DNA of 43,026 nt. Origin: Candidatus Heimdallarchaeota archaeon (GTDB taxonomy: Archaea > Asgardarchaeota > Heimdallarchaeia > JABLTI01). A model generated the notes under the pieces. It searched no databases. It had not been told where the DNA came from and saw nothing but the letters and a program-made list of their open reading frames with translations. Positions 117-9,755 of the stretch are shown piece by piece. Location of the stretch: NCBI GenBank assembly GCA_018238155.1, contig JABCTZ010000015.1, positions 1 through 43,026 of the forward strand, given 5' to 3'. Made by a program: the position numbers and the translations under genes. Every line of letters starts with the position of its first letter. Positions within the stretch are counted from its first letter, which is position 1.

Positions 117-176
117 ACGTGTCCTTCCTGAAATGTACAAAATCTAGATCTTTAAGAAGAAGCGAGGGCTGAGAAT
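117..176 (+). repeat. Cassette-boundary repeat R1
   Basis: cgtgtccttcctgaaatg...atctagatctttaagaagaagcgagggctgagaat; core 142-163. Confidence 0.85.
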
Positions 177-270
177 TTATTCAGTTAATTCGTTTTCCTT
201 TCTAGAACATAAAATTAATTAGTTATGATTGAATTGATTAATAAAACAATTACACTTTGCAATTAATCAT

Positions 271-1074
271 ATGAAGTTTGGAGATGGATATATAGAAATG
301 CTAAAGAAAATGATCGAAGAATGGAGGAAGGAACTCATAGAAGCAGGTGAGATTGATCCTTCAGAAGAATTTACTCGGCAAAAAATTCAGCTAAAATATC
401 AAGACTATAAAATGAAGAAAATGAAAGCTGCAGTGGGTGACAAAGGGAAGAGTAAAGGAACCAAAGTGTCAAAAGAAGAGAAACAAAAGAAGAAGAAACC
501 CTCGAAATCAGAAGCCAAAGGAGAAAGACTTGATGACACAAGTCTAGATTTAGAAAGTATTGGTGATATAGCAAGACGTCTCGAGGAAAGTAAGGAACGA
601 GGTCCAAAACCCCGAGAAGGACTAGTTTTTGCCATTGAACAATTAACTAAATCCGGAAAGGGTGGAAATTATTGCATGATTGTTGTTGATGGTTGTTGGA
701 TTAACTTTAGATTCAAGAAAAGAAAGAAAGAATTATTCATGCAAGTTTCTGGCAATCAGTATATTCCATCAAAATCACACTTTGACCAACAACACATCAA
801 GATACTCGAATCTTTCGGGATACAAGCAGATGAATACTCTAATGACATCTACTCGAGATACTTCAATGACAAACCAAGAGATTTTAACGAGATCGTTACT
901 ATTGTCTTCAAGGTTTTCGAACAAGTCTATAGGGTGGACAACAAATCATCAGCTTATATCGAGTTTGTACTAGGAAGTAAAGAACTTCCAGAATTCAAAG
1001 AAATTCTTGATGGTCTTCAAGACTTTATTCCAAAAAGGGCTAAAAACAAATTCAAGTGGTCTTGGGAATCCTAA
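271..1074 (+). CDS. Hypothetical protein: Lys-rich N-terminus, C-terminal globular domain (possibly TY-Chap/YbjN-like)
   Basis: 267 aa ORF filling the R1-R2 interval; the domain guess from QVSGNQYIP...LESFG is weak. Confidence 0.65.
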   Translation: MKFGDGYIEMLKKMIEEWRKELIEAGEIDPSEEFTRQKIQLKYQDYKMKKMKAAVGDKGKSKGTKVSKEEKQKKKKPSKSEAKGERLDDTSLDLESIGDIARRLEESKERGPKPREGLVFAIEQLTKSGKGGNYCMIVVDGCWINFRFKKRKKELFMQVSGNQYIPSKSHFDQQHIKILESFGIQADEYSNDIYSRYFNDKPRDFNEIVTIVFKVFEQVYRVDNKSSAYIEFVLGSKELPEFKEILDGLQDFIPKRAKNKFKWSWES

Positions 1075-1114
1075 CTGGCCTTCTAGCCCTTCAAGAAGAA
1101 GCCTGTGCACGAAC
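1073..1114 (+). repeat. Cassette-boundary repeat R2
   Basis: aactggccttctagcccttcaagaagaagcctgtgcac; core 1081-1102. Confidence 0.9.
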
Positions 1115-1159
1115 TTTTGTTTTTCAACTTTTATAATCAATTTCAATATCTTGTGAGTG

Positions 1160-1175
1160 TATGTTTTTATAAGCA
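1160..1175 (+). promoter_or_regulatory. Putative archaeal TATA box of the vapBC cassette
   Basis: atgtttttataagc about 37 nt upstream of ATG 1209; near-identical atgtttttataaag upstream of the DUF433 gene at 3034. Confidence 0.45.
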
Positions 1176-1208
1176 AGTTTTCCCTATAATTATTGTAGTT
1201 GATTGCTT

Positions 1209-1448
1209 ATGGCTGAAAAAACCATCAAAATCTCAGATGAGATTTATGCTTATCTGGAATCTTTGCGAAAAGAAAATGAAGAAATTGAAGAGGTTCTTGT
1301 ACGTTTATTATCACCAAAAGATACTTCAGCCTCAATTGATGATGTTTTCGGCAAATGGGTTGGTTCCGACAAGGAATTTGAGTCAATTCAAAAAGTAATT
1401 GATTCCACTTGGAATGAATGGAACAAAACATTGCAAGCTTCGGAGTAG
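1209..1448 (+). CDS. vapB: VapB-type antitoxin (DUF217-like)
   Basis: MAEKTIKISDEIYAYLESLRKENEEIEEVLVRLL...FGKW pattern; directly upstream of a PIN toxin. ATG 1209 preferred over TTG 1203. Confidence 0.8.
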   Translation: MAEKTIKISDEIYAYLESLRKENEEIEEVLVRLLSPKDTSASIDDVFGKWVGSDKEFESIQKVIDSTWNEWNKTLQASE

Positions 1449-1454
1449 AAATTA

Positions 1455-1847
1455 ATGTTTTGTTTGGACAGTGATATTCTAATAGCAATCATGCGTGGGA
1501 ATATTGAAGCAAAAGAGAAACTAGTTGAATTACAACGACAAAGTGAAGTATTTGTTACCTCTATTACTATATTTGAACTCTTCTTTGGTGCTTATCTATC
1601 TGAAGCATCAGAAAAAAATCTAACAACTGTAACTAAGCTTTTAGCACCATTTTCCAAGCTCTCCTATTCATACTCTGAAGCCAAATTGACTGGAGAATTT
1701 TCTGCTGACTTACAAAAGAAAGGTTCAACTATTGGTCTTAGAGACTGTATGATTGCTGCAATAACTCAAATTCACAATAAGATTTTGGTTACTCGAAATA
1801 TCAAACATTTCTCTCGAATACCAGGACTTAAATTAGAAAAATGGTAA
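1455..1847 (+). CDS. vapC: VapC PIN-domain ribonuclease toxin
   Basis: LDSDILI, SITIFEL, DCMIAA and LVTRNIKHFSRIPGLKLEKW PIN motifs. Confidence 0.95.
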   Translation: MFCLDSDILIAIMRGNIEAKEKLVELQRQSEVFVTSITIFELFFGAYLSEASEKNLTTVTKLLAPFSKLSYSYSEAKLTGEFSADLQKKGSTIGLRDCMIAAITQIHNKILVTRNIKHFSRIPGLKLEKW

Positions 1848-1885
1848 AACACATCGTTCTTATCACTGAAGCATAATTATTCTAA

Positions 1886-1933
1886 AAACGGACTTCTAGC
1901 CCTTCAAGAAGAAGCGAGGACCGTAGATTCTAC
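1886..1933 (+). repeat. Cassette-boundary repeat R3
   Basis: aacggacttctagcccttcaagaagaagcgaggaccgtagattctac; core 1894-1915. Confidence 0.9.
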
Positions 1934-1955
1934 AAAATCATTTTTTTTCTTTTGT

Positions 1956-1988
1956 TAACCCCTACAGTCTCAGGTGAGACTAGGATTA
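1956..1988. repeat. Palindromic element AGTCTCA-GG-TGAGACT in the right flank of R3; second copy at about 3760-3792
   Basis: agtctcaggtgagact at 1966-1981; tatctcaggtgagact at 3770-3785 flanked by taacc/ggtta. Confidence 0.7.
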
Positions 1989-8049: not shown

Positions 8050-8110
8050 GCTTTCTTTACTGAAATGGACTTCTAGACCTAAAAGAAGAAGCGAGGGGCG
8101 TAGATTCTAC
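8050..8110 (+). repeat. Cassette-boundary repeat R9
   Basis: ctgaaatggacttctagacctaaaagaagaagcgaggggcgtagattctac; core 8071-8092. Confidence 0.9.
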
Positions 8111-8202
8111 AAAATAACTATCAGTTATTTTTTTCTGTTTTTATAAAAAAAATGAAGGGAAAATAATTACTTATTTCCTCTTCTTGCGTACAATCATAAC
8201 AA

Positions 8203-8240
8203 TTTGGAATTCTAGCCCCTCAAGAGGAAGTGTGTATCTT
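8203..8240 (+). repeat. Cassette-boundary repeat R10
   Basis: tggaattctagcccctcaagaggaagtgtgta; core 8210-8231. Confidence 0.8.
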
Positions 8241-8245
8241 GAGTA

Positions 8246-8620
8246 TCATTTAAGTAAATTCTTGATTGGTTCTATTAAAATAGGAATATTTTTTTCAGGA
8301 ATTCCAACCATTGGACTTTCAGTGGCTTCTTTTGTATTCCTCCGATGTAAATGATGAGGTTTTGAGGTTACATTCCAACGATCATCAAAATTATCATAAC
8401 GGATGAAATCTTGTGGTTGTTGAGAAAATTGTATTTGGTATGAGTATTCGTCATAATCGTTATAACGAATATGGACTGTAAATCCTTTCAAAAATTTAAC
8501 AGTAAGTAATGGTTTTCTTTCATTGAGTTTTTGTTCCAGAATATAATTTGATAATTCTTCGTTAAGCAGCTTTCTTGCAATTGATATTTTTTTCCAGCCA
8601 GAGATGTCTTTTTCCCCCAA
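8246..8620 (-). CDS. DUF6516-family (TumE-like) putative toxin
   Basis: YSYQ......FIRYDN........KPHHLH motif; abuts a small upstream gene. Confidence 0.75.
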   Translation of the reverse strand: MGEKDISGWKKISIARKLLNEELSNYILEQKLNERKPLLTVKFLKGFTVHIRYNDYDEYSYQIQFSQQPQDFIRYDNFDDRWNVTSKPHHLHRRNTKEATESPMVGIPEKNIPILIEPIKNLLK

Positions 8621-8854
8621 TTAACCTAATTTATTCATTAATGTTTGGAGTTTTTCTTCTTCAAGTAAGAGCTGTCTTAGATCTATTGCATCATTCTCTG
8701 CATTTTCATGTCGACCATCTCTTGCTTTTTGTAGGAATTGCTCTGCTGAAGTTTCATTCCATCTTGATAAGATTTCTTCGATTTCTGCTTGTATTTGTCT
8801 TAGCTTATATGTAATTAGTTCTTCAGCTAGCTCTTTTTTCATGCTTACATTCAT
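8621..8854 (-). CDS. Small helical putative antitoxin partner of DUF6516
   Basis: 77 aa; its stop directly abuts the toxin start; ILSRW..TSAEQFL..AR.G......D..D pattern. Confidence 0.7.
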   Translation of the reverse strand: MNVSMKKELAEELITYKLRQIQAEIEEILSRWNETSAEQFLQKARDGRHENAENDAIDLRQLLLEEEKLQTLMNKLG

Positions 8855-9022
8855 TGTTACTCACTTGTACTTTTGATATGTTTTTATATAAACTATTCTT
8901 ATAATAGTTGCATTTTGATAATGCTATAACATTTCTCGATGTTCGAAGGTTCTTTTACAAGATCAGATTGAATGGCGCCGTTGTGTATGCGCGTTGAGTC
9001 TTCGGGCGAGATGCTCAGCCGA

Positions 9023-9091
9023 CACTTACCACCTAAGCGTGTCCTTCCTGAAATGGTCTTCTAGTCCTTCAAGAAGAAGCGAGGTCCGAGT
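9023..9091 (+). repeat. Cassette-boundary repeat R11 (long form)
   Basis: cacttaccacctaagcgtgtccttcctgaaatggtcttctagtccttcaagaagaagcgaggtccgagt; core 9059-9080. Confidence 0.92.
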
Positions 9092-9189
9092 GTCATTATT
9101 TAACAGCAATCAATTAGCAATTCTTGATTTCTATTTATGATAAGTTATATTAATATTGATACACAATTAGCATTTGAGGGATAGATTGC

Positions 9190-9381
9190 ATGACAACAAA
9201 AAATGAGGATATCATTCTCAAACGAATAAATCAGCTCGAAGGAAAAATCGATCGAATTGAACAGCTTATAATGCTAATTTTAGATGAGGATAACCTAACT
9301 GAAGAAGAATTACTACGTGTGACTCAAGCTGATAAACTGGTAAAAGAAAAAGCTTTTGACAAACTAGTTTTGGTGAAGTGA
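9190..9381 (+). CDS. Putative antitoxin of the RelE pair
   Basis: 63 aa acidic helical ORF overlapping the relE start (GTGA). Confidence 0.7.
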   Translation: MTTKNEDIILKRINQLEGKIDRIEQLIMLILDEDNLTEEELLRVTQADKLVKEKAFDKLVLVK

Positions 9382-9659
9382 TGTCTAATTCAAACTCTAA
9401 GTGTAGAGAGTATACCGTCTATTTCCTTCCAGTAGCAGAAAAAGAACTCGAGAAGCTACCCAAACAGATTAAAAAACAAATTCTTGAAGTCATTCATTCT
9501 TTGAAATTCCCCTTTCAAGTTCCAGCAATTAGAATGCGAAATGTCAAAGATACGTATCGTACAAAAATGGGTGGTTATCGTATTATCTATAACATCTACA
9601 ACTCAGAAGTGATAGTTGTTGTCATTCGAATTGCTCATAGAAAGAAAGCATATAGATAA
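9378..9659 (+). CDS. relE: RelE/ParE family toxin
   Basis: AEKELEKLPKQIKKQI...YRTKMGGYRIIYNI....IVVVVIRIAHRKKAYR signature. Confidence 0.92.
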   Translation: MMSNSNSKCREYTVYFLPVAEKELEKLPKQIKKQILEVIHSLKFPFQVPAIRMRNVKDTYRTKMGGYRIIYNIYNSEVIVVVIRIAHRKKAYR

Positions 9660-9681
9660 AAAGTTTAATTTCATTCTTCAG

Positions 9682-9755
9682 CACTTACCACCTAAGCGTG
9701 TCCTCCCCGAACTGGTCTTCTAGACCTTAAAGAAGAAGTGCGTGTATGAAAGATT
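9682..9755 (+). repeat. Cassette-boundary repeat R12 (long form)
   Basis: cacttaccacctaagcgtgtcctccccgaactggtcttctagaccttaaagaagaagtgcgtgt; core 9718-9739. Confidence 0.92.

Follow-up and report, generated by a model that had tools for sequence, protein, structure and literature searches.

Chromosomal integrons hold direct-repeat arrays of cassettes, in which toxin-antitoxin (TA) cassettes are abundant and are expected to stabilise the array. Integrative elements and their integrase-less derivatives, the cis-mobilizable elements (CIMEs), accrete in tandem at the 3' ends of tRNA and tmRNA genes. On Acinetobacter plasmids, pdif sites occur in alternating orientation as XerC/XerD binding pairs, and the modules between them, like the integrative mobile elements exploiting Xer recombination (IMEX), are moved by an unlinked host enzyme. 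The R1/R2 retrotransposons and Pokey insert inside eukaryotic 28S genes using enzymes of their own, while the rRNA-adjacent hypervariable region HVR2 of SAR11 is, to our knowledge, not built from repeated rRNA tails. Archaeal integrons have been reported and are enriched in Asgard genomes; those published have canonical attC, IntI and attI, and rRNA is unmentioned (PMC9668308). Here we describe a cassette array on a contig of 43,026 nucleotides (nt) from a Candidatus Heimdallarchaeota archaeon (contig C33, bases 1-43026, hereafter the window, of genome G000). G000 is a metagenome-assembled genome (MAG) of 4.08 Mb in 46 contigs, 91% complete and with 6% contamination. A previous sequence-only reading of the window had seen an integron-like, co-oriented array built on a repeat that is not attC, a description with which our motif and folding tests agree. 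We found that the repeat is a spare copy of the 3' end of the 23S rRNA gene with the stem arm that follows it, and that the window is a detached, assembly-cut piece of a large accessory-gene array rooted at the single 23S gene. A literature search returned no published description of arrays bounded by rRNA tails.

The repeat is a copy of the 23S rRNA gene tail

The twelve cores previously reported between positions 117 and 9755 (Table 1) all lie on the plus strand at spacings of 939, 813, 982, 814, 1388, 1293, 874, 826, 139, 849 and 659 bp, and every one of them was recovered by pattern, repeat and profile searches. A 22-nt core pattern, with up to three mismatches allowed, gave 13 matches in the window, all on the plus strand, and none in any of 100 dinucleotide-preserving shuffles of the window; the copy at 7245, which has four mismatches, was missed at this cut-off and recovered by repeat finding and by the profile search. 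The copies are thus where they had been placed, but the array does not end at 9755, since two further good plus-strand copies are present (17204 and 22468) and a full-unit profile search identified decayed plus-strand remnants near 24062, 25670, 27302 and 28620, as well as a right-module remnant at 33919-33992, that is, out to about 34 kb. On the left the array is truncated, as the window begins at base 1 of the contig.

In the whole of G000 about 40 copies were found, on contigs C33, C28, C31, C9, C2, C5, C32 and C35, together with three isolated ones, and their strand is uniform within every contig. Pattern and profile searches gave no copy on the three largest contigs, which amount to about 1.2 Mb. 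The copies are therefore clustered, on one strand per contig and on contigs of low G+C, and not scattered evenly over the genome in both orientations, which rules out an evenly scattered repetitive extragenic palindromic (REP) sequence, miniature inverted-repeat transposable element (MITE) or terminator. The G+C content of the array contigs C9, C28, C31 and C32 is 0.28-0.30, against 0.32-0.35 for the rest of the genome. The core was found in all 11 species of the genus that we compared, and in none of the 30 searched genomes from other genera of the same class.

A tail copy consists of approximately 0-130 nt of the 23S 3' end, a 10-nt spacer and a 21-nt core, TTCTAGMCCTTMAAGAAGAAG, which is the 3' strand of the pre-23S processing stem. 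Many copies continue past the core into more of the stem arm and the native downstream hairpin, and the right module that we call type A is the native sequence 3' of the real 23S gene. In an alignment of 106 copies from the genus, the core alone is universal, while the left side forms a nested series of one sequence with differing cut points, reaching at least 220 nt in the longest copies. Rfam assigns the long left arms found at other loci to the 3' end of archaeal large subunit (LSU) rRNA, with the LSU end and the core start at 5052 and 5063 in L027, at 6769 and 6780 in L018, and at 5360 on C35, where the core occupies 5349-5329. In the window itself, Rfam returned nothing at gathering thresholds, and for 8800-9200 a cut-off relaxed to E 10 gave only noise; since the LSU model does not detect the short tails, the identity was obtained only from the long copies elsewhere. 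Among the window copies, the longest piece of the 23S end, about 122 nt, is at 9059, where the left arm (8929-9056) agrees with the native tail (-132 to -2) at 108 of 124 positions. About 25 nt remain at 9718 and 17204 and about 7-11 nt at 142, 2876 and 8071, and the other copies have little beyond the spacer to the left of the core. The repeat had been taken for an undescribed recombination site of anonymous origin; instead, its source is the 23S tail and the 3' arm of the pre-23S stem.

In two species, the 5' flank of the 23S gene is predicted to form a duplex with the tail and core, at -38.5 and -35.2 kcal/mol, compared with -21 ± 3.5 for shuffled sequences. In the predicted fold, the helices GAAGAAG/CUUCUUC, a short central helix between bulges, UCUAGA/UCUAGA and AUGGA/UCCAU are separated by short bulges, a layout resembling a bulge-helix-bulge. 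The 23S tails of two other genera (G016 and G012) likewise have a reverse-strand match immediately upstream of the gene. The 5' arm of the stem is single-copy. Within the type A module, a distal CTTGAAGAAGT is able to pair with the core region, and a run of T follows most copies. At C28:33508 and C28:39907 the type A hairpin (CTCAGGTGAGACTAGG-like) stands with no recognisable core upstream, and variants of this hairpin are compensatory (CCTCA/TGAGG versus GTCTCA/TGAGAC), which suggests that the native module downstream of 23S may itself be a structured element. A coding reading of the left arm, in which the consensus would run in frame into the TAG of the core, was dropped, because the upstream open reading frames (ORFs) end earlier.

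The root of the array is the 23S gene. In a related species, G005, tail copies follow the gene (L056:2489-6770) across 26 kb of one contig and in its orientation, all on the plus strand, from 6781 to the end of L057. In G000 the single 23S gene lies at C1:134052-136836, where it runs off the contig end, and finishes on C35; this split indicates that the assembly broke at the repeats, and across these breaks the array of G000 is presumed to be contiguous with its 23S gene. The 23S gene of G005 (L018:2488-6769) spans 4.28 kb against a model of 2987 positions, which points to large insertions in the gene. A sub-threshold match to a group I intron was seen at L037:1236-1385 (E 0.057).

The 16S gene of G000 (C1:70404-71894) roots a second same-strand array, made of copies of its own tail and 3' flank (Table 1; array region 71835-81001). 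The copy at C1:75149 is 85% identical and includes the final ~22 nt of the 16S gene. Between the tails of 16S and 23S no clear sequence is shared. Outside the genus, searches with each genome's own tail gave one 23S tail and no further copies in G016 (a closed genome), G012 and G022, which represent other genera. In G033, from another family, two same-strand copies of the last ~310 nt of 23S with flank were observed (C8:27759-28068 and C8:46367-46669; L063 and L064), 83.5% identical over 449 nt, both starting at about 23S position 2721 and each preceded by non-rRNA sequence; this pair either is a duplicated tail outside the genus or belongs to a 23S gene that is split or contains an intron.

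Exchange of cassettes and its possible mechanism

Of the cassettes in the window, four have counterparts on C28 or C31 at 86-94% identity, and base-level alignments of these assemblies, the data from which all junctions and boundaries were read, show where the homology stops. The minus-strand DUF433/DUF5615 unit has its counterpart at C28:37780-38647 (88%); the two are homologous up to 18 nt past the core centre, and the right flank is type B on C33 and type A on C28. The second DUF433/DUF5615 unit recurs at C28:20264-21219 (94%) and in G009 (92%); at its left end, the homology to C28 begins inside the core. The HEPN/MNT cassette is found again at C28:31544-32386 (86%) and in G009 (87%), and the GNAT cassette at C31:24012-24828 (91%) and in G001 (93%). 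GNAT homology stops right after the core and GAGGG, beyond which comes type A on C33 and type C on C31. At right ends in general, the shared sequence takes in the core and the tail arm that belongs to the cassette, and is lost beyond GAGGG. Each cassette has its own characteristic tail arm, kept across species (for GNAT on C33, on C31 and in G001), and left and right flank types occur in mixed combinations across the copies. A comparable divergence marks the start of the window: positions 1-162 are 97% identical to C2:3733-3894 up to the core and unrelated beyond it. The two are either one cassette placed in two contexts or variants from co-assembled strains that differ in their neighbours, and the shared end is probably what caused the assembly to break at this point. 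Together, the breakpoints at right ends, at the left end and at the C2/C33 divergence narrow the point of exchange to about CCTTMAAGAAGAAG.

Species of the genus differ in their cassette content. In G009, the closest species, the DUF433/DUF5615 and HEPN/MNT cassettes are kept, and between them lie two unrelated blocks of 1671 and 883 bp. The 33-39 kb region of the window also has counterparts in G009, where it is divided into separate blocks edged by weak cores. The earlier suggestion of a gene-capture or shuffling platform is consequently borne out as far as shuffled flanks, breakpoints in the core and turnover between species are concerned; the dedicated recombinase that such a platform might carry was not found linked to the array.

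We consider it likely that this is a tail-bounded cassette array, rooted at 23S, which gains, loses and swaps blocks through recombination between tails. Each block has a 5' part of its own and, at the right end, its own tail copy; the one or few genes in it can point either way. The crossover would fall within the ~14 nt CCTTMAAGAAGAAG segment common to all copies, and the rRNA gene's own tail would act as the primary docking site and be left intact, a mode of action comparable to that of an integron or of tandem accretion at a tRNA gene. The many TA blocks could plausibly stabilise a direct-repeat array against deletion. We infer a recombination step at such a site, and that it is carried out by an unlinked site-specific enzyme seems to us close to an even prospect; ordinary homologous recombination between tails would be a serious, if somewhat lesser, candidate. 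Since the core is the only segment common to differing partners, both models predict breakpoints there.

The integron parts that had been reported missing are indeed absent. None of the 12 copies is spanned by a RYYYAAC...GTTRRRY (R''/R') pair, of which the window as a whole holds four matches over both strands, and eight folds of four copies on both DNA strands showed no excess of hairpin folding over shuffles (z -0.09 to -1.66). The window contig carries no tyrosine or serine recombinase, again as previously stated. Two other ideas were discarded: a recurring 246-residue ORF beside the tails was considered as an enzyme candidate, but its three proteins proved unrelated, and a target-site-duplication model was rejected because the left arms of adjacent copies differ greatly in length.

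Several observations weigh against the proposed exchange between tails or against a dedicated enzyme. On the array contigs of G000 no member of the tyrosine recombinase, serine recombinase, Cas1, TnpB or Y1 families was found, matches to PF00589 in this genome being confined to C8, where a conserved XerA-like recombinase of ~355 residues lies (C8:50428), and C19, and no tyrosine recombinase was found on any core-bearing contig of the 11 species (MAGs 64-92% complete). The two unrelated tails of 16S and 23S both seed arrays, which speaks somewhat against one sequence-specific enzyme. When copies are found through their flanks alone, a procedure adopted because a profile from core-selected copies is biased, the core is no better conserved than the arms and thus gives no sign of special selection on it. 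On C28 and C31, the same TA pairs also occur in some copies that lack a tail at one side and border directly on ordinary coding sequence, and the DUF433 cassette of G009 likewise has no tail on its left; tails are therefore not obligatory boundaries. Some of the 'paralogous' cassettes may come from co-assembled strains, given the 6% contamination of the MAG, and neither circular intermediates nor empty sites were observed in the assemblies.

The array might alternatively be a passive by-product of serial segmental duplication behind a highly transcribed rRNA gene, joined by selfish TA insertions, with each tail, together with its stem arm and T-run, kept as a terminator or insulator against read-through from the rRNA promoter. 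Such a process would fit the co-direction of the copies with 23S where the root is contiguous, the T-run after most copies, the existence of duplicated blocks (23832-25357 versus 27070-28623, 84% identical), the failure to find an enzyme and the occurrence of the pattern at both rRNA genes despite their differing tails. However, it does not account for one cassette having different neighbours, both inside the genome and from species to species, where homology breaks off at the core, for the shuffled flank types, or for the conservation of a cassette-specific tail arm across species, and three other genera whose 23S gene is equally transcribed have no tail copies. A conserved minimal site, and the lack of arrays in sister genera whose tails are equally conserved, weigh against a purely passive process, which we regard as unlikely. 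Exchange between tails could, on the other hand, belong to something larger, a Heimdall-group analogue of the integron with an independent origin, in which the rRNA stem arm of 23S and 16S would be the universal docking site and an undescribed enzyme, or a route linked to the rRNA 3' end, would act with no known integrase; this is possible, although we hold it to be rather doubtful.

A role at the RNA level appears improbable. The 3' arm of read-through or cassette transcripts would then pair with the 5' arm of pre-23S or with the distal A module, and the transcripts would be cut and circularised by splicing endonuclease and ligase or would serve as decoys tuning rRNA maturation. The core is the 3' strand of the bulge-helix-bulge-like stem, and the distal segment of type A has the pairing capacity described above, but with a single-copy 5' arm cassettes cannot form stems of their own, which rules out their RNA-level excision through such stems; moreover, half of the cargo is on the opposite strand, and the DNA-level shuffling of blocks would be left unexplained. 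A non-autonomous element of the MITE, REP or palindrome-associated transposable element (PATE) kind, or a generic terminator, locally dense by chance, would be short, with small hairpins and many copies, as here. We consider it very improbable, as the roughly 40 copies sit on few contigs, on a single strand in each, with none in the ~1.2 Mb of the largest contigs; they have no terminal inverted repeats or target duplications, they are nested 3' fragments of one gene's end, and neither TnpB nor a credible IS200-type transposase is present on the array contigs. Hardly credible at all is a classical integron or cluster of attC sites lacking integrases (CALIN), even though one unit per repeat, ~1-kb spacing and a cargo of TA, GNAT and unknown genes would suit it and archaeal integrons are enriched in Asgard genomes (PMC9668308): the copies are spanned by no R''/R' motifs, fold no better than shuffles on either strand, and are highly conserved in sequence and identical to the 23S tail, and no IntI-type recombinase is found on any array contig.

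Features of the window

Family searches confirmed the cargo that had been assigned to the intervals between the first twelve copies, namely vapBC, two DUF433/DUF5615 units, a RING protein, MNT/HEPN, GNAT, a DUF6516 pair, a relE pair and one empty interval. The cassettes had been described as lying in both orientations, and we counted five on the plus and five on the minus strand. Cargo without a family gave nothing informative against NCBIfam and PADLOC.

Table 1. Tail copies, cassettes and remnants in the window, with the copies of the 16S array. Positions refer to the window unless a contig is named; lengths of proteins are in residues.
Feature	Position	Strand	Description
Tail copy 1	118-167	+	~21 nt like 23S end and spacer; core 142-162, then CGAGG
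Cassette	163-1080	+	267-residue ORF 271-1074, no family (Pfam, NCBIfam, PADLOC)
Tail copy 2	1070-1107	+	core at 1081; left arm only ~10 nt; ORF stop codon 6 nt before core
Cassette cargo	1203-1847	+	VapB antitoxin 1203-1448; PIN toxin 1455-1847
Tail copy 3	1881-2043	+	core 1894-1914; type A right module (native +1 to +87)
Cassette cargo	2111-2712	-	DUF433 2467-2712; DUF5615 2111-2470
Tail copy 4	2856-2953	+	~18 nt left arm; core 2876-2896; type B right module
Cassette cargo	3034-3651	+	DUF433 3034-3273 and disrupted DUF5615; unit interval 2897-3689
Tail copy 5	3649-3863	+	core 3690-3710; full type A (native +1 to +130), end near distal AACTTGAA motif
Two cassettes	3864-6370	-	family-less 205-residue ORF 4013-4630, previously read as a putative membrane protein; 345-residue RING-finger protein 5185-6222
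Tail copy 6	5050-5153	+	core at 5078; between 205-residue ORF and RING cassettes
Tail copy 7	6333-6412	+	core 6371-6391 and 18 nt native stem arm
Cassette cargo	6407-7107	-	HEPN 6407-6790; MNT nucleotidyltransferase 6787-7107
Tail copy 8	7210-7347	+	degenerate core 7245-7265; A-like right module
Cassette cargo	7438-8025	+	GNAT acetyltransferase
Tail copies 9 and 10	8052-8232	+	cores at 8071 and 8210; empty 139-nt interval between
Cassette cargo	8246-8854	-	TumE-family toxin (formerly DUF6516) 8246-8620; 77-residue partner 8621-8854
Tail copy 11 (long form)	8929-9134	+	core 9059-9079; type C right module
Cassette cargo	9190-9659	+	63-residue putative antitoxin 9190-9381; ParE/RelE-family toxin 9378-9659
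Tail copy 12	9681-9740	+	33-nt left arm (29/33 as native); core 9718-9738
Two larger blocks	9741-22498	+	closed by tail copies 13 and 14
Tail copy 13	17162-17275	+	core at 17204; 36-nt arm, 33/36 identical
Tail copy 14	22446-22498	+	core at 22468
Decayed tail remnants	24062-24105, 25670-25707, 27302-27387, 28620-28672	+	E 0.01-0.8
A-module remnant	33919-33992	+	E 5e-7
16S tail/flank copies	C1: 75149, ~75850, ~76620, 77371, 78117, 79559, 80962	same as 16S	

The toxin-like DUF5615 gene at 3285-3651 is broken by stop codons or a frameshift, its DUF433 partner being intact. The two larger blocks at 9741-22498 carry two small ORFs (also on C28), an FtsX-type permease with an ABC ATPase, a C13 peptidase, a HEAT-repeat protein, a Bles03-like protein and an LRR protein. 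Between the distal remnants (24062-33992) are two subtilases in a duplicated block, an alpha/beta hydrolase and a DUF285 repeat protein. The subtilase genes lie at 24124-25293 and 27369-28316, one in each of the two block copies given above, and each copy stops near a weak tail remnant (25670 and 28620, respectively). The DUF285 protein (29418-32003, minus strand) has 861 residues with about nine DUF285 repeats and strong internal DNA repeats in a 75-nt register.

Comparison with described systems

If the proposed exchange between tails is right, these arrays would be a second, independently evolved type of cassette array, in the archaeal lineage closest to eukaryotes. The docking site would be borrowed from an essential RNA gene, and so be present in every cell, unable to drift and nearly identical across species, which would make it an ideal anchor for gene exchange between relatives. 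The array also explains the breaks of these MAGs at rRNA genes, and in each genome about 100 kb of TA and accessory genes that vary between strains are likely to be mishandled by binning and annotation pipelines. For the search for an enzyme, the 14-nt segment in which we place the crossover offers a concrete handle.

With integrons and CALINs, the array has in common its length and co-orientation, one small block per repeat at ~1-kb spacing, and a cargo rich in TA pairs, acetyltransferases and unknowns, in which the TA pairs are probably array-stabilising; in both, the site of a block is mostly at its 3' end and block content varies between related genomes. It differs in that the site is a conserved copy of the 23S end, whereas attC is defined by structure and variable in sequence; the root is an rRNA gene instead of intI-attI, with no IntI; and the cargo lies equally on both strands, in blocks of up to 5-12 kb. 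As in tandem accretion at tRNA and tmRNA genes, the direct repeats are pieces of the 3' end of a conserved RNA gene, as judged from the Rfam LSU ends and the tail alignments, and an intact functional gene stands at one end, with co-oriented repeats and elements stacked behind it (contiguous in G005). However, the target is 23S (and 16S), of which we found no description as a target, and the units measure 0.8-1.4 kb, number dozens and not two or three, and in no case carry an integrase.

Like pdif modules and IMEX, the blocks are small TA or accessory modules between copies of a housekeeping site, without a recombinase of their own, but unlike pdif sites the repeats here are all direct repeats of an rRNA tail. 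With R1/R2, Pokey and HVR2 of SAR11 the array shares the use of a conserved rRNA locus as a safe landing or variable zone. The predicted duplexes resemble the archaeal pre-rRNA processing stem, in which the 3' flank is complementary to the 5' flank and helices are parted by short bulges. Overall, the array shares the layout of integrons and CALINs and of accretion at tRNA and tmRNA genes, but not their defining parts.

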